A model generated the notes under the pieces. That model did no database searches and was not told the origin of the DNA. It worked only from the letters and a program-made list of their open reading frames with translations. A DNA stretch of 64,000 nucleotides. Source: Candidatus Daviesbacteria bacterium (lineage in GTDB: Bacteria; Patescibacteriota; Microgenomatia; Daviesbacterales; UBA10151). Shown piece after piece: positions 8,234 to 57,870 of the stretch. Both the position numbers and the translations under genes were made by a program. The DNA is taken from NCBI GenBank assembly GCA_016176335.1, contig JACOXI010000003.1, forward strand, positions 386,477-450,476, in the 5' to 3' direction. Position 1 is the stretch's first letter. Each line of letters opens with the position of its first letter.

Positions 8234-8240
8234 TACTAAT

Positions 8241-10259: not shown

Positions 10260-10260
10260 G

Positions 10261-11940
10261 ATGACAAAGAAAACATTTTTGTTGGTTTTAATATTAGCCT
10301 TGGCTACAATTTTGAGAATTTGGAAGCTGGATTCAGTTCCAGTGTCACTGTTTGGTGATGAGCTCGATGTTGGTTACCATGCTTATTCAATTTTAAAAAC
10401 CGGCAAAGATTACACAGGCAATACAGCATTATTTTATGTTAACTCGATTGCAGACAAGAAAGCCCCCCTTTATTCATATTTAGCAGTTCCTACTGTAGGA
10501 ATTTTTGGAATATCTCCTTTAGGTGTTCGTTTACCAGCTAGCCTATTTGGAATTTTGGGAGTATTACTTATTTTTTATGTTGTTAAGCTCATAACTTCTG
10601 AAAATATTGGTTTGATCTCTGCTGTACTGTTGGCTGTTTCTCCCTGGCATATTCAATTTTCTCGTTGGGGATTGGAACACACCTTAATGTTAGGATTATT
10701 TTTAGCAGGTATTTATTTTTTCTTTAAAAGTTTATCAAAAAATAAATGGTTGTTGGTATCTAGTGTCTGTTTTGCACTCACACCTTATGCTTATCATGCA
10801 GCAAAAATTTTTCTCCCCTTAATTTTAGTTGTTATGCTGATGATATTTTGGCGAGAGCTTAAAAAAGTCTCAAAAAGTTATTTCATAGTTTCCACATTAT
10901 TGATATTGATAATTGCTGGACCAGTAATCATAAGTAGCATTTTTGGAAATACCGCAGAACGTTTTAATTCTTTATCTATCTTGAGCGACTCTAAGAATGT
11001 TGGGGAGATAGGTTTTGATAGAGTCAAAGATATTCAGATGGAATCGCCTTTTGGTAGGCTATTTCATAATAAAATCACACTGCTTTTGGGAAAAATTGGA
11101 GAGAATTATTTTCGTTCTTTTTCAACAGAATTTCTATTCATCAGAGGAGATATTAATTTAAGACATTCAATTCTACAAAACGGTGAATTTTATAAGTATC
11201 AACTTTTCTTTTTAATTTTGGGATTAATATTTTTTACAGCTAAAATACCGAATCAAAAATACAAACTTTTTATAATATCTTGGTTACTTTTGTCCCCTTT
11301 TCCTGCTATGGTTACAACAGAGGGTGGTAATCATGCTGCAAGATTGTTCTTTATGCTACCAGTGCTGATAATCATTATCGCTACAGGAATATACTATAGT
11401 TATTTTACTTTAAGTAAAAAATTCCAAAGAATGTACATATTGGGTATGGCTTTATTGATTTTGTTAAGCTTTTTGTTTTACCAACATAATTATTGGATAC
11501 ACTATCCTTGGGATTCAGAGAGATGGTGGCAGGCAGGGTTTAAAGAGGCGATTCAATCAGTGGTTTCAGAAAGCAAAAATTATGATAAAGTGATTATCAG
11601 CCAAGCTGACGAACCGGCTCTGATTTCTTTCCTTGGTTACTCTGAATATCCTCCAGATCAATTTCAACAGAAGTACCCTTTAACTTCAGAAGATGTACCA
11701 AGTTTTGGCTCAATATCAAAACTGGATAAATATCATTTTCCTTCCATTGGAAAGGGAACCGATCTTTATAGCTTAGGATCTGTTTTACCTCCTAAAACTT
11801 TATACCTTGCTACAATAAAAGAGATAAATTTAAATCTTATACGTGAGCCGGAGCGTGTCCCAAAAGATCTTAAACTGATTAAATCAATCACTTATCCTTC
11901 AGGTGACCCTGCTTTTTATCTTTTCCAGAAAGCAATATAA
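10261..11940 (+). CDS. ArnT/PMT_2-family (GT39/GT83-like) GT-C glycosyltransferase
   Basis: The first extracytoplasmic loop has FGDELDVGYHAYSI (acidic DE/EL motif) and a ...KKAPLYSYL... (KPPL-like) motif. It has more than 10 TM and a C-terminal soluble domain shared with ORFs 17577, 19212 and 20813. Confidence 0.7.
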   Translation: MTKKTFLLVLILALATILRIWKLDSVPVSLFGDELDVGYHAYSILKTGKDYTGNTALFYVNSIADKKAPLYSYLAVPTVGIFGISPLGVRLPASLFGILGVLLIFYVVKLITSENIGLISAVLLAVSPWHIQFSRWGLEHTLMLGLFLAGIYFFFKSLSKNKWLLVSSVCFALTPYAYHAAKIFLPLILVVMLMIFWRELKKVSKSYFIVSTLLILIIAGPVIISSIFGNTAERFNSLSILSDSKNVGEIGFDRVKDIQMESPFGRLFHNKITLLLGKIGENYFRSFSTEFLFIRGDINLRHSILQNGEFYKYQLFFLILGLIFFTAKIPNQKYKLFIISWLLLSPFPAMVTTEGGNHAARLFFMLPVLIIIIATGIYYSYFTLSKKFQRMYILGMALLILLSFLFYQHNYWIHYPWDSERWWQAGFKEAIQSVVSESKNYDKVIISQADEPALISFLGYSEYPPDQFQQKYPLTSEDVPSFGSISKLDKYHFPSIGKGTDLYSLGSVLPPKTLYLATIKEINLNLIREPERVPKDLKLIKSITYPSGDPAFYLFQKAI

Positions 11941-11954
11941 TTAACATTAGTATT

Positions 11955-12860
11955 ATGAGCAAAGACATTTCAGTCATAATCAATACCTTAAATGAAGAGA
12001 AAAACATTGCAAGAGCAATTGAGTCTGTTAAATGGGCGGATGAAGTAGTGGTATGTGATATGCACTCCGAAGATAAAACTGTTGAGATTGCTAAAAAATT
12101 AGGCGCAAAAGTAATTTCCCATAAAAGGTTAGATTATGTAGAACCTGCCAGAAATTTTGCCATATCAAAGGCTTCTAATGAATGGATACTGATTGCTGAT
12201 CCTGATGAGGAGATTCCAGATCAGTTAGCCAAGAGATTAAAAGAGATTGCAAATAAAATGGAGCAGATAGATTATGTCAGAATACCCAGAAAAAATATTA
12301 TTTTTGGTAAATGGATGAAAGGAGCAATGTGGTGGCCTGACTTAAATGTAAGATTTTTTAGGCAAGATAAGGTTAAATGGACCGACAAAATCCATCGACC
12401 GCCAGAACTGTTAGGACAAGGATTAGACTTACCAGCAGAGGAAAAATGGGCGATTATTCATCATAATTATCAGACTATTGGTCAATTTATAGAGAGGATG
12501 AACCGTTATACCACAATTGAAGCAGAGGAATTAAAAAAGCAGGGATACGAATTTAACTGGCAAGACCTTTTTGATAAACCGTTAAATGAGTTTCTTTCAA
12601 GATTTTTTGCAAACCGAGGTTTTGAAGACGGATTACATGGATTGGCTTTAAGTTTATTACAGGGTTTTTCTTTTTTAATAATCTATCTTAAAGTGTGGGA
12701 AAATTCTTCATTCAAGGAAGCTGCGCTTAATCTGGCTGATTTGGAAGCAGACAAATCAAAGATGGGTTATCAAATAAATTACTGGATGAAGGAGATTAAA
12801 TCATCTAAAAATCCTTTTAAAAGATTTTTCTCGAAGTTTAAAGTTTATTTTTTTGAATAA
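11955..12860 (+). CDS. GT2-family glycosyltransferase
   Basis: The N-terminus ISVIINTLNEEKNIARAIESVKWADEVVVCDMHSEDKT is a GT-A fold with an acidic motif. It is a tandem paralog of the next gene. Confidence 0.75.
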   Translation: MSKDISVIINTLNEEKNIARAIESVKWADEVVVCDMHSEDKTVEIAKKLGAKVISHKRLDYVEPARNFAISKASNEWILIADPDEEIPDQLAKRLKEIANKMEQIDYVRIPRKNIIFGKWMKGAMWWPDLNVRFFRQDKVKWTDKIHRPPELLGQGLDLPAEEKWAIIHHNYQTIGQFIERMNRYTTIEAEELKKQGYEFNWQDLFDKPLNEFLSRFFANRGFEDGLHGLALSLLQGFSFLIIYLKVWENSSFKEAALNLADLEADKSKMGYQINYWMKEIKSSKNPFKRFFSKFKVYFFE

Positions 12861-12866
12861 AGAATT

Positions 12867-13670
12867 ATGTTAAGCGTTGTTGTACTTACGAAAAATGAAG
12901 AGGATAGAATAAAGGTTTGTCTTGAGTCTGTTAAATGGGCTGATGAGATTGTTGTAGTGGATAATGGATCGAAAGATAGCACCTTAGAAATAGCAAAAAG
13001 ATATACAGATAAAATTTTTAGTGTGAATCTGCAAGATTTTGCCGCATGGCGAAATTTTGCTGCAGAAAAAGTATTAGGGGATTGGATGTTATTTGTAGAC
13101 CCGGATGAGAGAGTACTTGAACCTTTAAAAAAAGAAATAGAAGGTATGATAAGCGTTTCGGATTTTTCCGCATATGCTCTTTCCCGAAAGAATATAATAT
13201 TTGGAACCGAGGTGAAGTATGGTCCATTCTGGCCTGATTGGGTAATCAGGCTTTTAAAAAAGGATGATTTTGAAACTTGGGTGGGGAAAATTCATGAATA
13301 CCCTAAATTTAAAGGCCAACTAGGATATAGCAAAAACTCTCTGTTACATCTGACTCATCAGGATCTTGATCGAATAGTTTTAAAAAGTTTGGCATGGAGC
13401 AAGATTGATGCCAAATTGAGGTTTGATGTTAACCACCCAAAAATGAGTGGCATCAGATTTTTAAGGATTTTTATCACAGAGTTTTTTCACCAAGGAATTA
13501 CAAGAGGCGGTTTTTTTGGCGGCACTGTTGGGGTAATGGATTCTATACTACAAGTTTTTAGCTTGTTCATGACCTATGTCAGGCTTTGGCAAATGCAACA
13601 AAGGAAACCACTAAGAGAAATTTATAGTGATATTGATAAAAAATTAATCGAAGATAACTTCAAATATTAG
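12867..13670 (+). CDS. GT2-family glycosyltransferase
   Basis: LSVVVLTKNEEDRIKVCLESVKWADEIVVVDNGSKDSTLEIAKRY, plus a DPDE motif. Confidence 0.75.
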   Translation: MLSVVVLTKNEEDRIKVCLESVKWADEIVVVDNGSKDSTLEIAKRYTDKIFSVNLQDFAAWRNFAAEKVLGDWMLFVDPDERVLEPLKKEIEGMISVSDFSAYALSRKNIIFGTEVKYGPFWPDWVIRLLKKDDFETWVGKIHEYPKFKGQLGYSKNSLLHLTHQDLDRIVLKSLAWSKIDAKLRFDVNHPKMSGIRFLRIFITEFFHQGITRGGFFGGTVGVMDSILQVFSLFMTYVRLWQMQQRKPLREIYSDIDKKLIEDNFKY

Positions 13671-14761
13671 TGAAACTTATGAAAATTGCTATTTATTCCC
13701 CGTATTTGGATACCTTTGGCGGCGGAGAGAAATATATGATGAGTATTGGCGAAATACTTTCCCAAAATAATTTTGAGGTAGATATACTTTTGGATAAGAA
13801 TTTGGAGAATAAGGATTGCAAGTATTTAAAAAATGAATTATCAAAAAGATTTAATTTGAATCTTGAGAGAGTATCTTTTATCAGAGCTCCAATAGGAGAG
13901 GGATCTAATTTTTTTTCGAGATTCTTTTTTTTAAAAAAATATACGGTATTTTTCTATTTGTCAGATGGTAGTATCTTTTATCCAACTGCCAGAAAGAACA
14001 TTTTACATATCCAATCTCCCATTATTGGACAACCTGCAAAAAGTTTATGGGGGAAAATAAAACTAAAGGGGTGGAATTTAATTATTTATAATTCGCAGTT
14101 TACCCAAAAATATTCTCAAAACAATTGGCCGCTGACGTCTCAAGTGATCTATCCCCCGGTTGATACTGAAAAAATTAAATTACTCGGGAAGAAAAATTAT
14201 ATTTTATCGGTAGGTAGATTTTTTGGTTACTTAAAAGACAAAAAACACGCAATTATGATCAAAGCATTTAAAGATCTGTATAAAGGTAAAAAAGTAGATG
14301 GTTGGAGTTTGTATTTGGTTGGAGTGGCATCAAAAGGAGATGAGCCTTATCTCATGCAATTACGCAATTTATCCAAAGGGTTTCCTATCAACTTTTATCC
14401 GAATTTAGCATATAACGCACTCATGACACTTTATGGACAGTCAAGTATTTACTGGCATGCTGCAGGTTTTGGAGAGGAAGATCCGACCAAGATGGAACAT
14501 TTTGGAATATCAACAGTTGAGGCAATGGCAGCAGGCTCTGTGCCAGTGGTTGTAAATGGTGGAGGACAAACAGAAATTGTAGAAGACGGAAAGAGCGGTT
14601 TTTTGTGGAATTCTCTAAAAGATTTGCAAAGATTTACAACTTCGTTAATTAAAGACCAAAATTTAAGGTCTAAATTATCACAAAATGCGGTTTTGGCTTC
14701 TCATAAATTTTCCAAAAAAAGATTTGAGAAAGAAATTTTAAAGGTAGTTGATTATTTATGA
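13670..14761 (+). CDS. GT4-family glycosyltransferase
   Basis: The C-terminal half has EHFGISTVEAMAAGSVPVVVNGGGQTEIVEDGKSGFL (EX7E-type retaining GT-B motif). The track start is a GTG at 13670; an alternative ATG lies at 13679. Confidence 0.75.
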   Translation: MKLMKIAIYSPYLDTFGGGEKYMMSIGEILSQNNFEVDILLDKNLENKDCKYLKNELSKRFNLNLERVSFIRAPIGEGSNFFSRFFFLKKYTVFFYLSDGSIFYPTARKNILHIQSPIIGQPAKSLWGKIKLKGWNLIIYNSQFTQKYSQNNWPLTSQVIYPPVDTEKIKLLGKKNYILSVGRFFGYLKDKKHAIMIKAFKDLYKGKKVDGWSLYLVGVASKGDEPYLMQLRNLSKGFPINFYPNLAYNALMTLYGQSSIYWHAAGFGEEDPTKMEHFGISTVEAMAAGSVPVVVNGGGQTEIVEDGKSGFLWNSLKDLQRFTTSLIKDQNLRSKLSQNAVLASHKFSKKRFEKEILKVVDYL

Positions 14762-16137
14762 AAAGATTTTTTCAAAAAACAACAGTCTGGGTATCAATTT
14801 TCTTTTTACTAAGCTCCATTTTTAGACTATCCAATCTTAATTTGATGGAGTTTAAATCTGATGAGGCTACAACCGTTTTTCAAACTATCCAGTTTTTTGA
14901 CCGTCCATATCTGATTGCGCGGGGTTTGATTTCAGGAACAGGAGTCTACAATTTTCCTTTGTTCAATTATTTGATAATTATTATTGCTGCTGTATCAAAA
15001 GATCCCCAAGTTTTAAGCTGGATGATTGCTTTAATCAACAGTGTACTGGTGGGTATTTTCTTCTTATTGGTTAAAAGATATTACAATTTTTTAACAGCTA
15101 TCCTGGCCGCAACACTTTTGGCATTTTCACCATGGGCTGTGATTTTCTCCCGCAAGATTTGGGCGCAAGATTTGATTAATCTTTTGCTGATTCCCATTCT
15201 ATGGCTGTTGCATGAGATTATTTTAAAAAAGACCACCAAAGTTTTTTTACCCCTATTTGCGCTGCTGACTTTATTAATACAGCTTCATGGTTCAGGATTA
15301 TTTTTTGCAGCCGTCACAGTAATTGTTTTGCTGATTTTGCGTGTCAGGGTGAAATTTAAACAAGCCTTAGCAGGCATTTTAATCGGGTTAATACCTATCC
15401 TGCCTTATGTTTTTTTTCAAATTAATTCCTATCCTTCATGCCCCGATTGCGAAGCTTTCTTAAACTACCAGCAGTCTTTTCGCATATTTGACTTTAACAA
15501 TTTCCTCAAGCCCTTTCAAATTATCAGCGGTTTAGGGTATCATTTTGTTTTAGGTAAAAGTTATACTGATTTTATTGCTGTTTATCCTTTAGTTAATCAA
15601 TTAAAATATATTTTCTTCACAGGATTTTTTGTTACTTTAATGGGTATACTTTTTGTGATTGCAAAAAAACAAAAGTATCTTTTTTTAGTTATATATTTTG
15701 TTACTCTTCCCTTTTTGTTCTTTATTACTAAAACACCAGCATATATGCATTATTTTGTTATCATTATACCCGTGAGCACTCTTTTATTTGCAGTCTCTTT
15801 AAGTACTGCCTATTCTTTTTTACGGAATAAGCTTTTGAGAGCATCCATCATAACCTATTTCTTGCTATTTCTTGCTTCAAACATTGCCTTCCTTATTTTC
15901 TTTAATAATTTTCTGGCAGTTAAAAAGCAAATTGACGGAGATTATGGACCAGTATACTCTGTGACCAAAAGCTTCATTGAAAAGGAAACAAGCGATTACA
16001 AAAGCCTGCCTTATTATCAATTTCTCAAAAGTTATGCTTACATGTATGCCCAGTCAAAAAATTTTCATACTAAACTGGGGGAATTTTTTTTGGAAAAAGG
16101 CGAATATGATTTAGCAGCACAGGAGTTGAAAAAATGA
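14758..16137 (+). CDS. PMT_2/ArnT-like GT-C membrane glycosyltransferase (divergent)
   Basis: The first loop has FKSDEATTVFQ...NFPLFNYL (DE and PL motifs). It has more than 10 TM and a short TPR-like C-terminal tail. There is an ATGA overlap with the GT4 upstream. Confidence 0.55.
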   Translation: MKRFFQKTTVWVSIFFLLSSIFRLSNLNLMEFKSDEATTVFQTIQFFDRPYLIARGLISGTGVYNFPLFNYLIIIIAAVSKDPQVLSWMIALINSVLVGIFFLLVKRYYNFLTAILAATLLAFSPWAVIFSRKIWAQDLINLLLIPILWLLHEIILKKTTKVFLPLFALLTLLIQLHGSGLFFAAVTVIVLLILRVRVKFKQALAGILIGLIPILPYVFFQINSYPSCPDCEAFLNYQQSFRIFDFNNFLKPFQIISGLGYHFVLGKSYTDFIAVYPLVNQLKYIFFTGFFVTLMGILFVIAKKQKYLFLVIYFVTLPFLFFITKTPAYMHYFVIIIPVSTLLFAVSLSTAYSFLRNKLLRASIITYFLLFLASNIAFLIFFNNFLAVKKQIDGDYGPVYSVTKSFIEKETSDYKSLPYYQFLKSYAYMYAQSKNFHTKLGEFFLEKGEYDLAAQELKK

Positions 16138-17573
16138 AGAAGCTAATAATTTTCCTGATAGTTTTAATTTTTACTTTTATTTTAAGAGCTCACAATTTTG
16201 ACCGCATACCGGCAATGGGACATTTAGAGGAGCAAATGTTTGCCTGGGCAGGAATTCACCTGATTGAAAGAGGAGTGCCACTTGCCTGGTCATCCTTGGA
16301 TTTTCCGGAAAGGGCCATAGTCTATAAAGGGCCAGTTTCTTATAAAGGCGGAGACCCAGTTGTTCATGTAAATTTAGTTCAGCCTTGGCTGGAGCAACCG
16401 CCACTTTTCTCACTTTTAGTAGGCAGTTTTGCTCATTGGTATAAGGTAGATCGTAATGGAGTAATTCCCACCTCATTTATAAGAACACCGATAGTGATAA
16501 TTTCAATTTTTACATCTGTGATGATTTTTTTGGTTGCCAGGCTTATTTCCGGTTATTGGACTGGTATTTTGGCGATGCTTATTTATGGTGTTACTCCTAT
16601 TTTAGTTTTAGGATCGAGATTGGCTGTGCCGGAAAACGTAATTGCTTTAGTATATCTTATAATTATCTACTTACTTCTAAAATTTCAGCAAAATCCAAAA
16701 TTTAAATTTATTGTTTTAATACCTTTGTTAGTAGGTATAGCAGGACTTTCTAAAGCCACAGGCTTTTTTATTATCTTTTTAGCAATTTATATTGTACTAA
16801 TAAAGCATCAATTTAAAAGAGCGTTTTATCTTTTTGTGGCTACTCTTCCTTTCGTGGCTTTATTTTTTGCCTACGGGCTTTATTTTGATCAAGAAATTTT
16901 TTGGAAGATTACTGCTATTCAATCATTTCGCCCGGTAGGTTTTGGAAACTTGGGTTGGTTTTTTGTTTCGCCAGCCTATGATATTACTGAACTGGTGGAT
17001 GGATGGTTTATTTTTTTGCTGCTTTCTGCGGCCTTTTTCCTTTTTTCTCCACAAGCGGGTCTGAAAAGGTTTATCAGTCTGTCTTTTATTTTCTGGCTAG
17101 CCGTGGTGATGGTTTCCGGAGGAGAGACAGATCTTTTACCTTGGTATAGATATCCTTCATATCCGCTGCTGGCAATTATGGGAGCTTGGGGTTTACAGAT
17201 TCTGGTCAAGCGGGCTGATTTCTTTGCCGCTTTTTTGACAACTGGATTGCTCTTGGGTAATAGGATGCTTTTGGTTAACCCTTTTCGTCCTAATATAACT
17301 CCTATAAATTTTAGATTGGTTTTTTTGCTACTTTTATTACCAGCTCTTTTAATAACAATTTTTAACAAAAGTTATTTGGAAAAACTTATTAAAGTGGTGC
17401 TTATTTTAGTCGTTATTACAGGCATGTATTTTAATACAAGTTATTTATACAATATCTTTGAATTGAAGTGTGAGAGTCGGACTTGTCCAATAGGACCTTC
17501 CACCAAGCTTTCTACTATTAGCTTCCCATTCATCTGGCGATGGCTGGTTTTAGGTGAACCTAAACTAAGATAA
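16134..17573 (+). CDS. PMT_2/ArnT-like GT-C membrane glycosyltransferase (divergent)
   Basis: HLEEQMFAWAGIHLIERG...PWLEQPPLFSLLVGSFAHW (acidic loop plus PPL motif), then many TM segments. ATGA overlap upstream. Confidence 0.55.
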   Translation: MKKLIIFLIVLIFTFILRAHNFDRIPAMGHLEEQMFAWAGIHLIERGVPLAWSSLDFPERAIVYKGPVSYKGGDPVVHVNLVQPWLEQPPLFSLLVGSFAHWYKVDRNGVIPTSFIRTPIVIISIFTSVMIFLVARLISGYWTGILAMLIYGVTPILVLGSRLAVPENVIALVYLIIIYLLLKFQQNPKFKFIVLIPLLVGIAGLSKATGFFIIFLAIYIVLIKHQFKRAFYLFVATLPFVALFFAYGLYFDQEIFWKITAIQSFRPVGFGNLGWFFVSPAYDITELVDGWFIFLLLSAAFFLFSPQAGLKRFISLSFIFWLAVVMVSGGETDLLPWYRYPSYPLLAIMGAWGLQILVKRADFFAAFLTTGLLLGNRMLLVNPFRPNITPINFRLVFLLLLLPALLITIFNKSYLEKLIKVVLILVVITGMYFNTSYLYNIFELKCESRTCPIGPSTKLSTISFPFIWRWLVLGEPKLR

Positions 17574-17576
17574 ATT

Positions 17577-19193
17577 ATGGATAAAAAAGTTAACATAGTT
17601 TTATTTACTTTAATACTGCTAATAGCCTTTCTCTTAAGATTCTATCAAGTTAATGATCTTCCTCCGTCTTTAAACTGGGACGAGGTGTCAATTGGCTATA
17701 ATGCTTATTCGATCTTCAAAACAGGTAGAGATGAGTGGGGGCAATTTTTGCCTTTAAGTTTTAGAGCCTTTGGTGATTATAAATTACCTCTTTACATTTA
17801 CCTGGATGTGCCGTTTGTGGCTATCTTAGGTTTGAATGAAATAGCAGTGAGACTTCCTTCTGTGGTATCGGGAATAGGGGTGGTAGTGCTTATTTTTCTG
17901 ATATTAAAAGAATTAACAAAGAGTATTTATCTTTCTCTTTGGGGGATGTTTATGAGTGCAATTCTGCCTTGGTTGGTAGTTTTTTCCCGTATTGCCTTAG
18001 AGGCAAATCTGGCTCTTTTTTTAACGACTGCTTCGTTTTATTTGTTTTTACTTTCTCAAAGAAAAAAGAAATTATTACCTTTATCTGCCATCCTCTTAGG
18101 GTTATCAACTTTCTCTTATAATAGCAGCAGAGTATTAGTCTTACCCTTTGTAATACTTGCAGCAATTTTTCTCTTTAGTTCTTCAAAGATTAAAGAAGTA
18201 TTTATTCCTTTAGTAGTCTTGCTAATATTTATTAGTGTGGCTTTCTTTCAAGCTCTTGCGGTTGATTCCGGAGCGAGGTATAGATGGACGACTATTCTGG
18301 ATGAGGGAGCAATCGAAAGCATCAATCAACTCCGCGGATCATCTAACCTGCCATCAATACTGAACCAATTGGTATATAATAAAGCTACTTATTTTCTGGT
18401 TGAATCCTCCAAAAACTACCTGTCTCATTTTGATCCGAATTTTTTATTTCTGAGGGGGGGATCAAACTTTCAATTTTCTGTCCCTGGAACCGGCCAAATA
18501 TACTTGGGAATGCTACCTTTTATTCTATTGGGAATTTGGCAAATGATGAAACAAAGGAAAAACTGGCAGCTGTTTATACTAGGTTGGATGCTGATTGCGC
18601 CAATTCCCGGGGCAATCACCAGAGATGCTCCTCATTCTCTAAGAACTATTTTTTTGACTATACCGTTACTTTTGAGTGCGGTTATAGGAATAAAATGGAG
18701 CAAGGATTTTTTACCTGCAAAAATTTTCCATCCCTTGTCAGTCCTTACAGTATTGGTACTGCTTGGTAGCACCTACATGTTTTGGCAAAACTATACTGGT
18801 GATTACCGAAAAGAATATTCCTGGTCTTGGCAATACGGATACAAGGAGGCTTTAGAGTTTGTCAAGACACATCAAGCCAATTATGATCGGATTGTTTTTA
18901 GTAAAATTTACGGTGAACCTCATGAATTTGTACTTTTTTACTTGAATTACGATCCTCATAAGTACCAAACCAGTAAAAATTTAATTAGGTACCGACAATC
19001 TGACTGGTTCTGGGTAGATAGATTTGACAAGTTTGAATTTATAAATGATTGGGAAATCAATGACAAGGTTTTAGGTATGAAGAATACTTTACTTATTACC
19101 AGCCCTCAAAATTTCCCGGCAAATTCTCAAATTTTAAAAACCATTAATTTTTTAGACGGAAAGAAGGCTTTTGAGATAGTAGCGGTGAACTAA
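17577..19193 (+). CDS. ArnT/PMT_2-family (GT39/83-like) GT-C glycosyltransferase, tandem paralog 1 of 3
   Basis: LNWDEVSIGYNAYSIFKTGRDEWG...YKLPLYIYL...RLPSVVSG, then more than 10 TM and a conserved C-terminal soluble domain. Contains a G7 tract at 18454-18460. Confidence 0.7.
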   Translation: MDKKVNIVLFTLILLIAFLLRFYQVNDLPPSLNWDEVSIGYNAYSIFKTGRDEWGQFLPLSFRAFGDYKLPLYIYLDVPFVAILGLNEIAVRLPSVVSGIGVVVLIFLILKELTKSIYLSLWGMFMSAILPWLVVFSRIALEANLALFLTTASFYLFLLSQRKKKLLPLSAILLGLSTFSYNSSRVLVLPFVILAAIFLFSSSKIKEVFIPLVVLLIFISVAFFQALAVDSGARYRWTTILDEGAIESINQLRGSSNLPSILNQLVYNKATYFLVESSKNYLSHFDPNFLFLRGGSNFQFSVPGTGQIYLGMLPFILLGIWQMMKQRKNWQLFILGWMLIAPIPGAITRDAPHSLRTIFLTIPLLLSAVIGIKWSKDFLPAKIFHPLSVLTVLVLLGSTYMFWQNYTGDYRKEYSWSWQYGYKEALEFVKTHQANYDRIVFSKIYGEPHEFVLFYLNYDPHKYQTSKNLIRYRQSDWFWVDRFDKFEFINDWEINDKVLGMKNTLLITSPQNFPANSQILKTINFLDGKKAFEIVAVN

Positions 19194-19211
19194 CTACGTT
19201 ATAATTAAAGT

Positions 19212-20816
19212 ATGAGGATTTTGCTGGGAATTTTTTTATTAGGTTTTATTTTGAGAGTTATTTTTTTAGATGTTGCTCCACCGGGGTTTAACGCTGATGA
19301 GGCAGCCTTAGGTTACAACGCTTACTCTATAATAAAAACCGGAAAAGATGAGTGGGGTACCAGTTTCCCTCTGGTTTTTAAATCCTTTTCAGATTATAAA
19401 CCTGGATTATATGTTTATTTGACCATCCCCTTTGTCTGGCTGTTAGGATTAAATGAGTTTTCAGTAAGAATACCTTCAATTTTATTAGGGTCCTTCTCAA
19501 TAGTGCTAATCTATTTTTTATCAAAAGAGCTGTTCAAGAAAGAAGCAGTAGCTTTAGCTTGCGCTTTTCTGTTAAGCATTTCCCCCTGGCATCTGCACTT
19601 TTCCCGGGGGGCTTGGGAAACCAATGCAGCCACTTTTTTTATCCTTTTAGGAGTATACACCTTTATTAAATCTTTTAAAAACCACCGCTTGTTATGGATA
19701 TCTGCAGCAGCTTTTATTGCCTCTATGTATACATATCAAAGCCCTCGGGTAGTAGTACCCGGATTAATTTTGTTATTTATAATCTTCTATTGGAAGAGAC
19801 TGGTGGTAAAGAAAAATATTCCGGTGGTTGTTCTGGCAGTCATCTTATTACTTCCGCTGGTTTTCATTCTAGTTAGCACAGCCGGCTTGGCCAGGTTTAA
19901 GGGGGTATCGATTTTCTCCGACACAGGTCCAATTAATCCGGTGAATGAAGAGAGAGGTCAACATCAAGATCCTTCCTCCTTTTGGATCAGATTCTTTCAC
20001 AATAAAGCAGAAGTTTACGCTCGTAATTTCTTCGGTCATTATCTTGATCATTTTAATCCTAACTTTCTCTTTACTTTGGGCGACCCTCTCAAAAGAAATA
20101 AAGTGCCTGATATGGGACAGATGTATATTTTTGAGATAGTAACTCTTGTTTCGGGATTATATTTTATTATCAGAAGTAAATTTAGTAATACTAAGGTAGT
20201 GTTTTTGTGGCTTCTGGTAGCTCCTTTAGCCTCTTCCTTGACTTATCAGACACCACACGCCCTAAGAGTTCATAATATGGTTATACCCCTCACTTTAATT
20301 TCCGGTTTAGGACTCGGTATGTTATGGGAAAATTTGCCGCGTCTTGCCTGGTCGGTAAAGTATCTAGCTAAAAGTGCGGTTGTTATAGTGATAGGTCTTT
20401 CTGTGGTCAGTTACTTGGATAGATATTATCTTCATTTGCCAAAACAATATGCGCTAGAATGGGAGTACGGTTTTTCTCAAGTGATACCATATATCGTAGA
20501 AAATCAAAATAACTATCAGAAGATTATCATTACAGACAGATACGACCAGCCTTATATCTTATTGTTGTTTTATTCAAAATATGATCCGGCAAGATATCAT
20601 AAGCAGAATAAAGAAATGGGCGAAGATAAATTTGGTTTTTTCACAATTACCTCTTTTGATAAATTCAATTTTAGACCAATAGGTAAAGAAGAAATTCACA
20701 AAAGTAAAAACACTCTATATATTGGAACAAATGAAGAAATTGGCGAAGATCAGATTCCATTGAAGGTGATTAATTTCCCAAATGGAATACCCGCCTTTAA
20801 GATTGTAGGGACTTGA
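19212..20816 (+). CDS. ArnT/PMT_2-family GT-C glycosyltransferase, tandem paralog 2 of 3
   Basis: FNADEAALGYNAYSIIKTGKDEWG...YKPGLYVYL...RIPSILLG. Same architecture as ORF 17577. Confidence 0.7.
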   Translation: MRILLGIFLLGFILRVIFLDVAPPGFNADEAALGYNAYSIIKTGKDEWGTSFPLVFKSFSDYKPGLYVYLTIPFVWLLGLNEFSVRIPSILLGSFSIVLIYFLSKELFKKEAVALACAFLLSISPWHLHFSRGAWETNAATFFILLGVYTFIKSFKNHRLLWISAAAFIASMYTYQSPRVVVPGLILLFIIFYWKRLVVKKNIPVVVLAVILLLPLVFILVSTAGLARFKGVSIFSDTGPINPVNEERGQHQDPSSFWIRFFHNKAEVYARNFFGHYLDHFNPNFLFTLGDPLKRNKVPDMGQMYIFEIVTLVSGLYFIIRSKFSNTKVVFLWLLVAPLASSLTYQTPHALRVHNMVIPLTLISGLGLGMLWENLPRLAWSVKYLAKSAVVIVIGLSVVSYLDRYYLHLPKQYALEWEYGFSQVIPYIVENQNNYQKIIITDRYDQPYILLLFYSKYDPARYHKQNKEMGEDKFGFFTITSFDKFNFRPIGKEEIHKSKNTLYIGTNEEIGEDQIPLKVINFPNGIPAFKIVGT

Positions 20817-22429
20817 TGACTAAGCAAGTAAAGATTTTTTTTCTTTTAATAATTCTTATATCGGCAATTTTGAGGTTTTATAAACTGGATGTTATTCCTC
20901 CTTCTTTGTCTTGGGATGAGGTTGCTAATGGTTATAATGCCTATACTATTGCCAATTGGGGCAAGGATGAATGGGGTAAAGTTTTTCCTTTAACTTTTAA
21001 ATCTTTTGAGGATGACAAACATCCGGTTCATATATATTTCACTGCTTTATCGGTTAAGCTATTGGGCTTATCAGATTTCAGCACCAGGTTTCCTGCAGCC
21101 TTATATGGAGTGTTAAATGTAGTAGTTATTTTTTACCTTGCCAAAACATTATTTGCCAGCAATTTAATGGGACTTCTTTCTGCATTATTTTTAGCGATCT
21201 CCCCTTACAATCTCCAGTTTTCCCGTTTTAATCATGAAGCTAATTTTGCCCTATTTTTCTTTTTGTTGGGTTTTTTGTTGTTTTTAAAAGGAATCCGGGA
21301 AAACAGAATATTTCTGCCTTGGGGATTTTTTAGCTTTGGAGTCAGTTTATTAAGCTATCATCCATCTAAAGTAGTTGTCCCTCCTCTAATTTTGCTGCTA
21401 ATAATATTTTTTTTCAAAGATTTACTTAAAATTAAAAAGTATTTCCTGATGGCTTTGTTGGCTTTATCTATTATTTTTATGCTGATGTTTTCGGATAAAG
21501 CTCTTTTAGGAGGAGCTAGAATCAAACAGACTTCTATAAATCGTGATAAAATTATCAAGACCTCCTTTTTTAAAAAAACGCACAATGAACTTCTGGGGAG
21601 AATGGAGGTTACGTTTAAACAATATTTATGGCATTTTGACCCAGGATATTTGTTTGTCACCGGCAGCTCAAATTCCAAATTCTCTATTCAAACCGTAGGT
21701 CAGTTTTATAAATCAGATGCACTTTTTCTGACAATTGGTTTGATCGGGCTAATTGCAGGTATCTTATTTGTGCCCAGTCTTAGAAAAAAATTATTGATAC
21801 TTTTAGTATGGGCAATATTATCTCCTTTACCCTCCAGTTTAGTGGAAGAAGCTCCTCATGCAGCCAGGGCCAGTTTTATGATGGGTAGTTGGCTGTTGAT
21901 TTCGGCCTATGGTTTTTATTTACTTATCATATTACTTCGAGGCAAACTGGCGAGAGCAACTATTCTGGTGTTAGGTTTGGCAGTGACTTTTTGGTTATTC
22001 AAAGACTATCTGATTGATTTTTACACAACTTACCCAAGGGAACATGGTATTGATTGGCAATATGGCATGAAGCAAATTGTTGAATACGTTAAGGAACATA
22101 ATGGATATTCCAGGGTATATGTGACGGATATTAGATTCCAGCCTTATATTTTCTTCCTGTATTATTTGAAAACACCTTTGCCGAAGTATTTGGAAACTGT
22201 TATCTTTACCCAAGATACAGAACATCGAAAATATAGCTTGGTTTCATCATTTGGTAAATATCATTTTGGCGATTGGGATCCTATTGAAAGCGAACTAACT
22301 ATGGGTGTTCTATATGCAGTTACTCCCAGTCAATATGATGGATTAAGGCACAGGGATGCATTTGATGTTAAAAAGATTATCTATTATCCTAATGGCACAA
22401 CAGCTTTTTATCTGGTAAGTAGCATATGA
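20813..22429 (+). CDS. ArnT/PMT_2-family GT-C glycosyltransferase, tandem paralog 3 of 3
   Basis: LSWDEVANGYNAYTIANWGKDEWG...RFPAALYG. ATGA overlap with paralog 2. Confidence 0.7.
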   Translation: MMTKQVKIFFLLIILISAILRFYKLDVIPPSLSWDEVANGYNAYTIANWGKDEWGKVFPLTFKSFEDDKHPVHIYFTALSVKLLGLSDFSTRFPAALYGVLNVVVIFYLAKTLFASNLMGLLSALFLAISPYNLQFSRFNHEANFALFFFLLGFLLFLKGIRENRIFLPWGFFSFGVSLLSYHPSKVVVPPLILLLIIFFFKDLLKIKKYFLMALLALSIIFMLMFSDKALLGGARIKQTSINRDKIIKTSFFKKTHNELLGRMEVTFKQYLWHFDPGYLFVTGSSNSKFSIQTVGQFYKSDALFLTIGLIGLIAGILFVPSLRKKLLILLVWAILSPLPSSLVEEAPHAARASFMMGSWLLISAYGFYLLIILLRGKLARATILVLGLAVTFWLFKDYLIDFYTTYPREHGIDWQYGMKQIVEYVKEHNGYSRVYVTDIRFQPYIFFLYYLKTPLPKYLETVIFTQDTEHRKYSLVSSFGKYHFGDWDPIESELTMGVLYAVTPSQYDGLRHRDAFDVKKIIYYPNGTTAFYLVSSI

Positions 22430-23193
22430 CAAAAATTTCAGTAGTTCTTGCAGTCCATAACGAAGAAGAAAATATCGGAAAATGTCTTGAGTCGGTTAAA
22501 GATTTATCATGGGAGACTATAATTGTAGATGGGGGATCTACGGATAAAACTTTAGATATTGCAAAAGAGTTTGGAGCCAGGATTATAGAAACAGAAAACT
22601 TTCAAAATTTCCATATAAATAAAAATAAGGCCATAGATGCAGCTAGAGGAGATTGGGTTTTACAACTGGATGCTGATGAGATTGTGACAAGGCAGTTAAA
22701 AGAGGAAATTCAAACAGTAGTTGAAGACCAAAAATATAATGGTTACTGGATTCCACGAAGAAACTTTTTTTTAACAAGATTTTTGACAAAGGGAGGACAA
22801 TATCCTGATTATACATTAAGACTTTACAAGAAAGGATTAGGCAGACTGCCAGGAAAAGATGTTCACGAACAGGCAATTGTAGAAGGCAGAGTAGGGTATT
22901 TGAAAAACGACCTGTTACATATGCGAGATAGAAACTTCTCGATTTATTTCAGCAGATTTAAAAGATATACGGATCTGTTGGCTTCTCAACTACACGAGAA
23001 AGGGCAAAGAGTTAATTTAATATCCTCAATAAACTATCTGTTTATCAAGCCTGTATGTTGGTTTATTAAATCCTATCTAAGGCACAGAGGGTATGTTGAT
23101 GGGTTTGCCGGATTTGTTTTTGCGCTTTTTTCTTCACTTCGATTCCCTGTTGCCTATTATAAATTATGGAGGCTTTATGCACGTAGCAATTAA
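22426..23193 (+). CDS. GT2-family glycosyltransferase
   Basis: ISVVLAVHNEEENIGKCLESVKDLSWETIIVDGGSTDKTLDIAKEFGARII, plus a DADE motif. ATGA overlap upstream. Confidence 0.75.
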   Translation: MTKISVVLAVHNEEENIGKCLESVKDLSWETIIVDGGSTDKTLDIAKEFGARIIETENFQNFHINKNKAIDAARGDWVLQLDADEIVTRQLKEEIQTVVEDQKYNGYWIPRRNFFLTRFLTKGGQYPDYTLRLYKKGLGRLPGKDVHEQAIVEGRVGYLKNDLLHMRDRNFSIYFSRFKRYTDLLASQLHEKGQRVNLISSINYLFIKPVCWFIKSYLRHRGYVDGFAGFVFALFSSLRFPVAYYKLWRLYARSN

Positions 23194-28452: not shown

Positions 28453-29166
28453 TCAACCAAAATATTTAGGTAAGCTGGAAAAATAGACTTTGGTAATTGT
28501 TTTGAAAACATTGAGACCATCTTTGAGGGCTTTGATTCCAGAGATACCTCCGACTCTTTTTGTGTATGTAATGGGAATTTGTACCAAGTTCATTCCCATC
28601 TTTGCTGCTTTTACCACCACCTCAGCTTCATATTCAAAATGCCTTTCCTTTAAATCCAAAGCTAGGAATGCATTTTTTCTAAATCCTTTAAATCCCGCCA
28701 TAACATCGGTAATTTTTCTACCGCAGGCAATTGATGTTGCAAGGGAAATTATCCAGTTGCCCAAAAGGTTTCTAAAGGTTATTGAGCCTTGTTCAACTTT
28801 TCCTCCATTAAACCGTGTACCTATAACAATATCAGCTCCCATCTCCAGTGCCTTAACAAATAAGGGTATCTCATATGGTTGAAATTGGTGATCGGTATCA
28901 ATTTGAATAATATAATTACCTTTGGCTGCTAAACCTCCTGCCCAAAAATCTGCACCTTTTCCTCGTTTAAAGGGAAATCTAATAATTCTATCAATCCTTA
29001 ATCTTTTGGCAATTGTAACTGTTTTATCCTTTGAGGCTGCATCTACTAAAATGATTTCTATGGGGAAAAATTTCTTTAAAATCTTGCAATCTTTTATAGT
29101 TCTGCCAATATTTTTCTCTTCATTGTAAGAAGTAAGAACTATGCTTACTAATTTTGGGGTGTTCAT
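28453..29166 (-). CDS. Dpm1-like GT2 polyprenol-phosphate glycosyltransferase
   Basis: VSIVLTSYNEEKNIGRTIKD...IIQIDTDHQ...DVMAGFKGFRKNAF matches the dolichol-phosphate mannose/glucose synthase family. Confidence 0.7.
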   Translation of the reverse strand: MNTPKLVSIVLTSYNEEKNIGRTIKDCKILKKFFPIEIILVDAASKDKTVTIAKRLRIDRIIRFPFKRGKGADFWAGGLAAKGNYIIQIDTDHQFQPYEIPLFVKALEMGADIVIGTRFNGGKVEQGSITFRNLLGNWIISLATSIACGRKITDVMAGFKGFRKNAFLALDLKERHFEYEAEVVVKAAKMGMNLVQIPITYTKRVGGISGIKALKDGLNVFKTITKVYFSSLPKYFG

Positions 29167-54007: not shown

Positions 54008-54011
54008 ATTT

Positions 54012-55196
54012 ATGAAAAGGTTGGAAATATTTAAAATTTTTATAGTTTGGAGGGTGGTATTATTTGCAGTGTCAGCTTTGGCAATTCTTTTTATTACTGA
54101 TTTTGGAGTAAGGTTTCCTTATTATAATACGGTATTGGAGCCAACTGGACTACCTTCTTGGGTATGGGGCTTTGGAAATTTCGATGGGGTGCATTATTTA
54201 AGAATTGCTCAAGATAGTTACAGCGCGCAGTATTCGCAGGCTTTCTTTCCTTTGTACCCGTTACTCATAAGAATATTTACGGAAGCGAATATTCTTTTAC
54301 CCAAAGATCCCAATCTTGACACGCGAATTTATGTAGATCCAACCTTTTTCTATAGCGGATTGATACTTTCAAATCTAATTTTACTAATAGCTTTATATTT
54401 TTTTTACAAATTAGTTATCCTCGATTACAAAAAAGAGATTGGCCTAAAATCTATTATATTACTGCTTGCTTTTCCGACTGCTTTTTATTTCGGGTCGATA
54501 TATACCGAATCTTTGTTTTTGCTTCTTGTAGTTGGATTTTTCTATTTAATGAGAAAACAAAATTTTATTGCCGCAGGAGTATTGGCAGGATTAGCCTCCG
54601 CCACCAGAATTTTCGGACTTTTGCTTCTACCTGTGTTTCTTGCCGAACTATACTTAAAAATTAAGAATAAAGAGATATCGTTAAAAAGCGAACAATTTGT
54701 CAAAGCTCTGATTGGGATTTTACTTGCCCCTACGGGTATCCTGCTTTATATGCTTTATCTACGGTTTGAATTTGATAATCCCCTATATTTTTTAACTTCC
54801 CAGCCACTGTTTGGGGCAGAAAGGAGAAATGAAATTATTCTATTGCCGCAAGTTCTGTTCAGGTACATTAAGATTTTTTTAACTGTTTCCCCAATTTCAT
54901 TACCTTTTTTCAATGCTTTTTTAGAATTTTCTTTTACTCTGATAGCTTTAGGTCTATTGTTTGTTTCATTTAAGAAAATTAGATTCAGTTACTTTATATT
55001 CACTTTTGGTAGTTTGCTACTGCCAACACTTACAGGAACCCTCTCTTCGATGCCAAGGTATTCTTTAATGTCGTTTCTTATGCTCCCATTTTTAGTACGG
55101 TTTTCAGGAAGACATTTTAAATTAGTGGTGGTTTCGTTTATACTCTTACAAATGATCCTAGTTGGTCTTTTTACCAGAGGATATTGGGTGGCTTGA
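54012..55196 (+). CDS. PIG-V/GT76-like GT-C mannosyltransferase-family membrane protein
   Basis: FDGVHYLRIAQDSYSAQYSQAFFPLYPLL resembles the WDxxHxLxIAExGY...AFFPLxPL signature of PIG-V-type mannosyltransferases; more than 8 TM. The alternative start at 53970 lies within the previous gene. Confidence 0.5.
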   Translation: MKRLEIFKIFIVWRVVLFAVSALAILFITDFGVRFPYYNTVLEPTGLPSWVWGFGNFDGVHYLRIAQDSYSAQYSQAFFPLYPLLIRIFTEANILLPKDPNLDTRIYVDPTFFYSGLILSNLILLIALYFFYKLVILDYKKEIGLKSIILLLAFPTAFYFGSIYTESLFLLLVVGFFYLMRKQNFIAAGVLAGLASATRIFGLLLLPVFLAELYLKIKNKEISLKSEQFVKALIGILLAPTGILLYMLYLRFEFDNPLYFLTSQPLFGAERRNEIILLPQVLFRYIKIFLTVSPISLPFFNAFLEFSFTLIALGLLFVSFKKIRFSYFIFTFGSLLLPTLTGTLSSMPRYSLMSFLMLPFLVRFSGRHFKLVVVSFILLQMILVGLFTRGYWVA

Positions 55197-55198
55197 AA

Positions 55199-55858
55199 AT
55201 GAAAATATATTTAGTCATACCGGCATATAATGAAGCCAAAAGAATTGACAATTTGCTTGAAAGTCTTAAGGGGGTTAACCTTCCTGTCATTTTGGTTGAT
55301 GACGGATCTTTTGATAAAACTTTTCAGTTGGCAAAAAAATATCCGGTTACTGTTTTGCGGCACAAAGTAAATCTGGGAAAAGGTGCAGCGCTTAAAACCG
55401 GTTGCGAAGCGGCAATTCTGCTAGGTGCTAGTGCTGTAATTTTAATGGATTCTGATGGGCAGCATAAAGCTTCTGATTTGCCTAAGTTTGTTGGAAAAAT
55501 TAGCATGGAAACATATGATGTTGTTTTTGGTTCAAGGAATTTAAATATAGGAGTTCCTTTGGTGCGATATATTGGGAATAAAATAGAATCAGTATTAATC
55601 TCGTTATTATATGGAATCTATATTTCAGATCCGATATGTGGTTTCAGGGCAATGACTAAAAAAGCATACCAAAAAATGAAGTTGGAATCAGCGGGATATG
55701 ATATTGAAACAGAAATGGTGATTAAGACTAAACATTTTGGTTTCAAGTATTGTGAGGTGCCTGTGGAAACTGTATACTATGATAAGTTTAAAGGGGTGAC
55801 AATTTTGGATGCGTTGGGAATATTTACTAATATATTAAAATGGAAAATATTTAAATGA
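55199..55858 (+). CDS. GtrB/Dpm1-like GT2 polyprenol-phosphate sugar synthase
   Basis: IYLVIPAYNEAKRI...VILMDSDGQH...DPICGFRAMTKKAYQ...GYDIETEM. Confidence 0.7.
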   Translation: MKIYLVIPAYNEAKRIDNLLESLKGVNLPVILVDDGSFDKTFQLAKKYPVTVLRHKVNLGKGAALKTGCEAAILLGASAVILMDSDGQHKASDLPKFVGKISMETYDVVFGSRNLNIGVPLVRYIGNKIESVLISLLYGIYISDPICGFRAMTKKAYQKMKLESAGYDIETEMVIKTKHFGFKYCEVPVETVYYDKFKGVTILDALGIFTNILKWKIFK

Positions 55859-57840: not shown

Positions 57841-57870
57841 GCAAAGTTTGAATTTTAATGGATTAAAATT

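Follow-up and report, generated by a model that had tools for sequence, protein, structure and literature searches.

An apparently ancient, ordered array of GT-C glycosyltransferase genes in Candidatus Daviesbacteria and related Microgenomates

Sets of GT-C-type glycosyltransferases are established components of the mycobacterial and corynebacterial envelope machinery, in which the Emb, Aft, PimE and Mpt enzymes act serially outside the membrane with polyprenyl-phosphate sugars and build one envelope glycan. A further member of this fold, ArnT, is the undecaprenyl-phosphate-L-Ara4N (4-amino-4-deoxy-L-arabinose):lipid A transferase; bacteria of the Candidate Phyla Radiation (CPR, Patescibacteria) are not known to possess lipid A. 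CPR genomes measure approximately 1 Mb and the chemistry of their envelopes is hardly known. Here, a 64-kb stretch of Candidatus Daviesbacteria (Microgenomates, CPR/Patescibacteria), referred to as the window, was analyzed with emphasis on an array of six genes, designated A to F, which encode integral-membrane glycosyltransferases of the GT-C fold (GT-C_A type, PMT_2 superfamily).

Comparison with related loci indicates that Microgenomates as a group have this array in common, as an old module with a fixed gene order and intact catalytic motifs, and as such it presents a concrete target for work on what these cells display at their surface. Its placement within a superfamily is already known: NCBI annotation assigns the GT39 family and Pfam assigns PMT_2, consistent with lineage-typical members of a known superfamily. 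In full-text searches of the literature on GT-C-type enzymes of CPR, Patescibacteria and Microgenomates, neither the ordered array, nor the dedicated C-terminal domain described below, nor so dense a set of GT-C-type genes for a genome of approximately 1 Mb was found described; a Microgenomates genome paper mentions '29 genes of glycosyl transferases' and no more (PMC7143001).

Family assignment, fold and C-terminal domain

All six open reading frames (ORFs) listed in an earlier sequence-only reading of the window are present on the plus strand (Table 1). Full-length alignments of A, D, E and F show identities of 30-34% (A with D, E and F at 30-31%, D with E at 34%; blastp, E 4e-54 to 1e-93), a similarity far beyond chance, and B and C show weak blastp similarity to these four. 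E is 100% identical to NCBI MBI2018516.1, annotated as 'glycosyltransferase family 39 protein', and orthologs reach 82% identity. The Pfam gathering score of PMT_2 (PF13231; 26.1 bits) was passed by A (49.8 bits, 5.8e-13), C (41.3 bits, 2.3e-10), D (32.4 bits, 1.3e-7), E (48.1 bits) and F (63.0 bits, 5.1e-17), and B fell below it at 22.6 bits. The score of PMT (PF02366; 22.7 bits) was passed by D (34.6 bits, 2e-8), E (30.0 bits) and C (23.4 bits, 4.9e-5); F lay below at 19.0 bits, and A and B gave no match. PMT_2 outscored PMT in C, E and F, with D as the exception, and a partial match of A to Pfam STT3 (1.9e-7) also exceeded its gathering score.

Small ortholog alignments of B and C from related loci were compared with the family profile by hhalign. 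B aligned at 97.3% (E 2.5e-11, 329 columns) with its S-D-E placed on the D-E pair of the family, and C at 97.0% (E 1.1e-10, 172 columns) with L-E-E on the same pair and E-Q-P-P-L on D-Y-K-P-G-L. A, D, E and F are full-length paralogs, and B and C are true but distant homologs, in line with their earlier description as divergent members.

Three motifs are common to A, D, E and F, namely D-E...GY(N/H)AY...(K/R)D(E/Y)(W/T)G within external loop 1 (EL1), D-(Y/K/D)-K ahead of transmembrane helix (TM) 2, and SPW..FSR after TM4. B keeps S-D-E after TM1 together with SPW..FSR; in C, L-E-E replaces D-E, and the E-Q-P-P-L and GSR motifs are present. Hydropathy fits the GT-C topology of approximately 11-13 TM helices with a long first external loop. 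The acidic motif of GT-C enzymes (DxD, DD or DE) is essential and lies shortly after TM1 in the first extracytoplasmic loop, and E-E is an accepted variant (PMC6801728). In an AlphaFold2 model of E, built from a 49-sequence alignment (predicted local distance difference test (pLDDT) 90.2, predicted template modelling score (pTM) 0.91), TM1 corresponds to H2-16 and EL1 to residues 17-65, approximately 12 further helices extend to residue 412, and D29-E30 open the first external-loop helix (H28-43) directly after TM1. The shared first-loop motif and its placement, first read from the letters alone, are corroborated.

Conservation was assessed in an alignment of 348 family members from 80 related loci. 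The D29-E30 pair was kept in 338 of the 338 members covering these positions, and near-invariance extended to D46 (338/339), R86 (341/344), R132 (337/348), R228 (335/343) and R352 (348/348). Because the acidic pair and the arginine positions are so nearly invariant, all of the paralogs look catalytically competent.

When the E model was searched against the PDB with Foldseek, GT-C enzymes were recovered exclusively down to E ~0.1, including STT3A, Pmt4, ArnT, PglB, ALG12, AglB, ALG9, EmbC and DPY19. The best match was STT3A in 8b6l (E 1.4e-7), and other fold matches include 6p25, 6p2r and 7bvc. Structural comparison of the E model gave the paired values 25.7 and 409 for ALG12, 24.9 and 368 for AglB, 24.2 and 393 for ArnT, 22.5 and 324 for Pmt4, and 22.5 and 377 for STT3B. 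The aligned lengths go no further than approximately 410 of 534 residues. The matches cover the membrane part and leave out the C-terminal domain. Together, Pfam PMT_2 and Foldseek bear out the initial assignment to a GT-C fold of PMT_2/ArnT type. Between the paralogs, EL1 is the best-conserved region (48% identity), and divergence is greatest in EL4, TM9-12 and the C-terminal domain (27-31% identity), a pattern that fits a common chemistry directed at different acceptors.

The last TM helix ends at approximately residue 405-412, and A, D, E and F run on for a further 125-150 aa ending in ...NG..AF. This soluble domain, proposed earlier as a conserved feature of the family, is real and family-specific in these four proteins and is absent from B and C. 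When 1.84 billion representative proteins were searched with a profile built from the four domains, 2,637 clusters (50% identity representatives) matched at E <=1e-3 and 991 at E <=1e-10. The domain appears tied to the GT-C family of A, D, E and F, because among the 150 best-scoring proteins listed it occupies the C-terminal end of every full-length match (approximately 520-595 aa). Shorter matches look like gene fragments.

Modelled separately with AlphaFold2 (pLDDT 90.1, pTM 0.85), the domain forms a small alpha/beta unit whose structure matches are generically Rossmann-like. A carbohydrate-binding module, one of the possibilities raised for it, is not supported, and the fold is not that of a beta-sandwich module of this type. 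ArnT, PglB and AglB were not among the top 60 structure matches of the domain model, Pfam returned no match even at E up to 1, sequence matches in the PDB were spurious, and the periplasmic domain of E. coli ArnT was not detected in the comparison with the C-terminal domain. The domain is therefore uncatalogued, being absent from the domain libraries searched; it is widespread and yet described by no domain library. Conserved residues W-(Q/E)-Y-G come directly after the last TM helix of the family. Among the 348 members, 229 have the W, 271 the Y and 330 the G of this motif, which we take, as a lead only, to recall the peptide-binding WWDYG motif of oligosaccharyltransferases. The domain is predicted to lie outside the membrane, where it probably positions the acceptor, a role offered here as a guess.

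Related loci and age of the array

One genome per GTDB species was scanned for relatives of the array. More than 494 loci encode such relatives, the best 80 of which were kept, and all ORFs within ±10 kb were searched with two hidden Markov models, one for the full protein and one for the C-terminal domain. Patescibacteria/Microgenomates labels are carried by 41 of the best 80 loci, spanning Davies-, Woese-, Collier-, Shapiro-, Ames- and Blackburnbacteria. Full-length members number one to six per locus, with a median of 4.5 and with six members in 19 loci; when end-truncated ORFs are included, related loci reach 7 members within ±10 kb. The array, taken from its sequence to be unusually large for a bacterium, is therefore of ordinary size for its lineage, and arrays are the rule in related genomes rather than a peculiarity of this one.

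Average-linkage clustering of the 348 members resolved the window paralogs into separate orthogroups. The order 18-29-42-33-36 recurs in many Woesebacteria-type loci, and the window reads 18 (A) ... 42 (D)-36 (E)-23 (F), without the '33/31/30/32' member found between D and E in most lineages. Three Daviesbacteria-like loci, L005, L012 and L015, share with the window B, C and, in part, the intervening GT2-GT2-GT4 genes, which L005 and L012 hold in the window order and L015 as the second GT2 and the GT4 only. The outer (5') members of the arrays are the most variable orthogroups.

Since the paralogs are 30-34% identical and fall into separate conserved orthogroups in a fixed order, the duplications appear to be ancient with each copy retained, and the array is shared across Microgenomates rather than specific to this genome. 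The retention of each ancient copy argues for non-redundant roles and against genome-specific expansion. Recent tandem duplication was rejected, as clustering places the paralogs in separate conserved orthogroups. The earlier suggestion that each paralog has its own specificity and thereby diversifies a glycoconjugate survives in part: a separate role for each is supported indirectly by orthogroups conserved in order, but diversification peculiar to this genome is at odds with duplications that are ancient and syntenic.

With regard to the remaining labels, 35 of the best 80 loci are designated 'uncultured Gammaproteobacteria/Pseudomonadales' and come from one third-party assembly set that includes OZ246397.1, a 615-kb 'chromosome'. 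These loci, which include L006-L011, L013-L014, L016-L017, L019, L021, L025, L027-L028, L031 and L033-L034, show the gene order of the named Microgenomates loci, and their labels are probably placeholder or mis-assigned taxonomy. Three further loci are labelled 'uncultured bacterium' or 'bacterium', and one 'Spirochaetia'.

Gene context and candidate donor synthases

The window has a G+C content of approximately 34%, and the plus strand carries nearly all of the genes (approximately 80%). GC skew is positive in all 2-kb bins except one, and cumulative skew climbs almost steadily from position 1 to 64000; the positive skew and the strand bias together suggest that the whole window lies on one replichore with its genes co-oriented with replication. 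A Pfam scan of every ORF of at least 150 aa tallied 13 GT2 and 6 GT4-type genes, two Wzx/MOP flippases (ORFs 3330 and 24247), five to seven methyltransferases, four epimerase/dehydratases, one UDP-glucose dehydrogenase, a split transketolase and many polytopic membrane proteins. The entire 64 kb is a glycan-biosynthesis supercluster, and devoting at least 64 kb to glycan genes is a heavy commitment when the genome measures approximately 1 Mb.

Within the array, C and D are separated by a 3-nucleotide (nt) gap and D and E by an 18-nt spacer, and E and F share 1 nt in TGATG, or four nt (TTGA) if the TTG start is used. The tandem triplet had been described as fused by ATGA overlaps; the sole ATGA overlap at these junctions joins F to the GT2 gene at 22426. 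Gene callers start F at ATG 20816, not TTG 20813, on two identical contigs (L001 and L002). For the GT4 gene that follows this GT2, the longest ORF (23093-24250) would run over the last 101 nt of the GT2; on the identical contigs the gene is called from 23177, which leaves a 17-nt overlap. Mechanical ORF starts around 20813 and 22426-24250 are thus not likely to be the true starts. Promoter- and terminator-like sites within 4000-23900 are no more numerous than expected by chance, and internal promoters or terminators splitting the array were ruled out on these counts; the tight one-strand packing together with the chance-level sites fits one long operon.

The two small GT2 genes between A and B (Glycos_transf_2, 3.8e-20 and 6.8e-17) and the adjoining GT4 gene are cytoplasmic Leloir-type transferases. 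The five genes downstream of the array are conserved to varying extents, with best-hit orthologs again downstream of the array in 27 to 75 of the 80 related loci, as listed in Table 1. Three GT2 genes stand out as the expected makers of polyprenyl-phosphate monosaccharide donors for the GT-C enzymes, judging from their nearest relatives. ORF 25442 has the Pyrococcus dolichyl-phosphate-mannose (Dol-P-Man) synthase 5mlz (9e-13) and GtrB 5ekp as best solved relatives, with partial NCBIfam matches to PgfS and ArnC. ORF 28453 shows full-length NCBIfam matches, all below cut-off, to AglJ (1e-33), a Dol-P-hexose transferase, ArnC and PpgS, is related in the PDB to 5mlz (2e-17) and ArnC (6e-8), and is likely to make a lipid-linked donor. 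ORF 55184 matches PpgS at 3.4e-33 over positions 2-218 of 226, again below cut-off, with 5mlz (3e-19), then ArnC and GtrB, as PDB relatives. Taken jointly, ORFs 28453 and 55184 have full-length sub-threshold NCBIfam matches to AglJ, PpgS, ArnC and PgfS. Directly before ORF 55184 lies a PIG-V-type GT-C gene, and this arrangement suggests a donor-synthase/transferase pair.

Several other large membrane proteins are encoded in the window. X and Y, downstream of a Wzx flippase, are paralogs (30% identity over approximately 650 aa, E 7e-76) with conserved HDG.WH, NP.F...L.NYH, GSFG, FGGE..FWA.Q and NPP motifs. They have no match in Pfam, NCBIfam or the PDB, and their membership in the A-F family was not shown, with hhalign below 1% even with 29 sequences. 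Their 320 homologs are mostly 'hypothetical' CPR proteins, although UniRef labels some homologs of Y 'Glycosyltransferase RgtA/B/C/D-like domain-containing protein'; for X and Y, a Wzy-like polymerase is conceivable, as is a GT-C family that has so far gone unrecognised. In each of the paralogs 36764 and 48634, approximately 11 TM helices at the N-terminus are followed by a large soluble region and by one TM helix at the C-terminus; hhalign against the GT-C family reaches 77% over 73 columns. The paralogs 40327 and 44795 each carry a DGD/GDD motif after TM1 (hhalign 61% against the GT-C family), and a blastp match between 44795 and A (5e-8) places GGDDW on GDELD; these two are probably further distant GT-C enzymes. 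Six is therefore a minimum count, and the window may encode 9 to 15 GT-C-type proteins.

Table 1. Positions of the array genes, their motifs and domains, and other features of the window, with occurrence in the best 80 related loci
Feature	Coordinates	Strand	Description	Occurrence
GT-C-type membrane protein	896-2155	+	weak GT87 match, 24.6 bits (gathering score 25)	
GT-C-type membrane protein	2162-3319	+	weak PTPS_related match	
X	4808-8233	+	polytopic, no Pfam; N-terminal extracytoplasmic part ~480 aa without Pfam match	
Y	8241-10259	+	polytopic, no Pfam; directly upstream of A	
A	10261..11940	+	GT-C paralog of orthogroup 18, 559 aa	best match for an ORF in 42/80
A D33-E34	10357-10362	+	acidic pair	
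A C-terminal domain	~11473-11937			
GT2	11955-12860	+	between A and B; Pfam Glycos_transf_2	
GT2	12867-13670	+	between A and B; Pfam Glycos_transf_2	
GT4	13670-14761	+	between A and B; Pfam Glycos_transf_1, 4.8e-23	
B	14758..16137	+	divergent GT-C, 459 aa, no C-terminal domain	
C	16134..17573	+	divergent GT-C, 479 aa, no C-terminal domain	
D	17577..19193	+	GT-C paralog of orthogroup 42, 538 aa	best match for an ORF in 73/80, upstream of E ortholog
D D35-E36	17679-17684	+	acidic pair	
D C-terminal domain	~18768-19190			
E	19212..20816	+	GT-C paralog, 534 aa, orthogroup 36	80/80
E D29-E30	19296-19301	+	acidic pair	
E C-terminal domain	20424-20813		alpha/beta, residues 405-534	
F	20816..22429	+	GT-C paralog, 537 aa (ATG 20816) or 538 aa (TTG 20813), orthogroup 23	window, L005, L012 and L015 only
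F D34-E35	20915-20920	+	acidic pair	
F C-terminal domain	~22025-22426			
GT2	22426-23193	+	downstream of array	best-hit ortholog in 75/80
GT4	23177-24250	+	downstream of array	best-hit ortholog in 66/80
Wzx/MOP-type flippase	24247-25524	+	downstream of array	best-hit ortholog in 35/80
DPM1/GtrB-like GT2	25442-26290	+	downstream of array	best-hit ortholog in 46/80
GT4	26287-27420	+	downstream of array	best-hit ortholog in 27/80
Candidate polyprenyl-phosphate-hexose synthase	28453..29166	-	GT2, 237 aa	orthologs in 22/80
Polytopic paralog of 48634	36764-39316	+	no Pfam, 850 aa; blastp 5e-36	
Polytopic paralog of 44795	40327-41901	-	no Pfam, 524 aa; blastp 1e-27	
Polytopic paralog of 40327	44795-46738	-	no Pfam, 647 aa; blastp 1e-27	
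Polytopic paralog of 36764	48634-52101	+	no Pfam, 1155 aa; blastp 5e-36	
PIG-V-type GT-C	53970-55196	+	Mannosyl_trans2, 6.9e-12; directly before GT2 55184	
Second candidate polyprenyl-phosphate-sugar synthase	55184..55858	+	GT2, 224 aa	
Split transketolase	56977-58794		Pfam	

Proposed pathway, alternatives and known systems

The GT-C proteins of the array are read here, with moderate confidence, as ancient and non-redundant polyprenyl-phosphate-sugar-dependent transferases that would act outside the membrane on one surface glycoconjugate. In such a pathway, the DPM1/GtrB/ArnC-like GT2 enzymes 25442, 28453 and 55184 would load single sugars onto polyprenyl phosphate at the cytoplasmic face, the lipid-linked sugar would be flipped to the outer face of the membrane, and each GT-C enzyme would then transfer its sugar to an acceptor outside the membrane by means of the D-E pair and conserved arginine or lysine residues. 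The paralogs would most likely represent successive, non-redundant steps differing in sugar, linkage or acceptor position, with the divergent EL4 and C-terminal domain probably shaping the choice of acceptor. A lipid-linked core would be supplied by the neighbouring GT2 and GT4 enzymes and exported by a Wzx-type flippase, and the product would be one lineage-typical cell-surface glycoconjugate. The scaffold may be a lipid-linked oligosaccharide or polymer, because the GT2/GT4/Wzx module adjoins the array.

Several points weigh against this pathway. The homology, fold, motif conservation, synteny and donor-synthase-like genes are observed; the donor type, the side of the membrane, action in sequence, what the C-terminal domain does and the kind of acceptor, glycopolymer or protein, are what we infer from them. 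Characterised enzymes show marginal sequence similarity to the family (ArnT 5ezm, E 3e-4; E. coli ArnT, hhalign 1.6%), all NCBIfam matches of A-F lie far under their cut-offs, and the generic structure matches of the C-terminal domain leave its assigned role a guess. Neither an initiating phosphoglycosyl transferase nor a GtrA-type flippase was detected among window ORFs of at least 150 aa. Finally, the conserved gene order is equally compatible with a hetero-oligomer or with separate protein-acceptor specificities.

Protein acceptors constitute a serious alternative, if on balance an unlikely one. The paralogs would then be protein O-glycosyltransferases, comparable to bacterial Pmt, Pseudomonas TfpW or streptococcal PgfM1/PgfM2, each modifying different secreted, pilin or S-layer proteins. 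Consistent with this are the Pfam PMT matches of D, E and C above the gathering score, the family 39 name given to E by NCBI, the oligosaccharyltransferase and Pmt structures among the best fold matches, the presumed likeness of W-(Q/E)-Y-G to WWDYG and the weak matches of neighbouring GT2 genes to PgfS. However, the protein O-mannosyltransferase equivalog reaches 15.9 bits where its cut-off is 800, the six proteins contain no MIR domain, and the array is surrounded by Wzx flippases and many GT2 and GT4 genes, a setting typical of polymer synthesis.

Hetero-oligomers would be compatible with either acceptor. Solved GT-C relatives form such dimers, and adjacent paralogs of the array could be obligate partners in the manner of Pmt1-Pmt2 or EmbA-EmbB, so that the array would encode one or two complexes. 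Orthogroups 42, 33 and 36 strictly co-occur in fixed order across loci, the junctions are translationally coupled or near-coupled, and dimer-forming relatives are among the fold matches 6p25, 6p2r and 7bvc. Obligate partnership is nevertheless rather doubtful, as every member retains a complete catalytic motif and none looks purely structural, and Daviesbacteria dispense with the '33' member between D and E, which implies that the partnership is not obligatory.

It is improbable that the array is a lineage- or genome-specific expansion serving to diversify a glycoconjugate, for instance in antigenic or phage-receptor variation. The confinement of F-type proteins (orthogroup 23) to Daviesbacteria-like loci, the range of one to six full-length members per locus and the variability of the 5' outer members are in its favor, but the A, D and E orthogroups recur in conserved order from Woese- to Daviesbacteria in 42, 73 and 80 of the 80 loci, the low identity between paralogs implies old duplications, orthologs are up to 82% identical, and the clustering argues against window paralogs grouping together rather than with orthologs from other classes. 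It is very improbable that some or all members are non-catalytic GT-C-fold proteins, such as Agl23-type flippase-associated proteins or PIG-U-like scaffolds, since TIGR03663 'flippase activity-associated protein Agl23', although the best NCBIfam match of A, D, E and F (E 1e-8 to 1e-12), reaches 32-48 bits against a cut-off of 126 over the N-terminal third only, the D-E pair and several arginines are essentially invariant in the 348 members, and the E-E of C is still an accepted motif variant (PMC6801728).

A broader proposition can be put forward tentatively, as possible rather than probable. Microgenomates would share an ancient, syntenic extracytoplasmic 'assembly line' of three to at least six GT-C paralogs with a new C-terminal alpha/beta domain, bearing W-(Q/E)-Y-G at the WWDYG position, that builds a lineage-defining glycoconjugate or glycosylates surface proteins; X/Y, 36764/48634 and 40327/44795 would be additional GT-C families, so far unrecognised, of that pathway. 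If true, these ultrasmall and probably episymbiotic cells would depend on a glycoconjugate, or on glycosylated surface proteins, made by the array.

Among known systems, ArnT (GT83; 5ezm/5f15) is the sole solved protein reached by sequence from the family (E 3e-4, residues 66-228 only). The lysine of D-Y-K aligns with that of E-K-P-P in 5ezm and of F-E-K-P in E. coli ArnT, which upholds the KPPL-like motif noted in the sequence-only reading. The first loop of ArnT (DE..Y.......GDW...FEKP...FG.NNFGVR) is collinear with that of E (DE..GYNAY...G.DEW...DYKP...LGLNEFSVR), and ArnT, like A, D, E and F, has a soluble domain after its last TM helix. The equivalence of the DE motif to that of ArnT is drawn from its position after TM1 and from collinearity by eye; hhalign and hmmsearch against ArnT aligned only from the G-D-W/F-E-K-P stretch onwards and left the DE motif itself unaligned. 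Against an ArnT assignment, the hhalign probability against E. coli ArnT is 1.6%, no ArnT model appears among the NCBIfam matches, and no ArnA-, ArnB- or ArnD-type genes, and hence no arnABCD context, occur in the 64-kb window.

With Pmt (GT39; yeast Pmt1/2/4 and bacterial Pmt) the array shares the D-E after TM1, multi-paralog sets, GT39 naming and the Pfam PMT matches of C, D and E. It differs in that the NCBIfam equivalog NF058602 gives 15.9 bits for A against a cut-off of 800 and no match for the other five, and in that A-F lack the MIR domain in the large loop, with A, D, E and F carrying the C-terminal alpha/beta domain instead. The resemblance to Pmt expansions drawn from the sequence is therefore a loose analogy only, tests of PMT and ArnT membership having failed. 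A-F would work in the manner of ArnT/Pmt-type GT-C_A enzymes but appear to be orthologs of neither ArnT nor Pmt. Oligosaccharyltransferases (GT66; STT3/AglB/PglB) provide the best Foldseek match (STT3A, 8b6l) and the partial passing Pfam STT3 match of A, and the last TM helix of the family is followed by W-(Q/E)-Y-G, which is no true WWDYG. However, the score with the archaeal STT3 model is 15.8 bits (cut-off 450), the much smaller C-terminal domain resembles none of the oligosaccharyltransferase domains, and a second DxD or TIXE/SVSE motif was not identified in the family; A-F fail the membership tests for oligosaccharyltransferases.

Three-component systems (GtrA/GtrB/GtrC; CsbB/YfhO; PgfS/PgfM1/PgfM2) likewise combine a GT2 polyprenyl-phosphate-sugar synthase with one or more GT-C enzymes. 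ORFs 25442, 28453 and 55184 are nearest to GtrB, ArnC and Dol-P-Man synthase, with weak PgfS matches. Here, however, the window contains no GtrA-type small flippase, an array holds up to six GT-C genes rather than one or two, and the genes are embedded in a Wzx-type polysaccharide cluster. The Emb/Aft/PimE/Mpt sets (EmbA/B/C, AftA-D, PimE, MptA/B) likewise comprise several GT-C paralogs, some in tandem, and a PpgS-like GT2 is present in the window. The relationship to them is one of fold only, a small alpha/beta C-terminal unit stands in place of the large carbohydrate-binding domains of Emb and AftD, and the window genome is approximately 1 Mb. The nearest system-level analogues are presumably the mycobacterial Emb/Aft/Mpt/PimE set and the GtrB/GtrC-type systems, and, if the assembly-line proposition is true, the array would hold the place in Microgenomates that the Emb/Aft/Mpt set has in mycobacteria.

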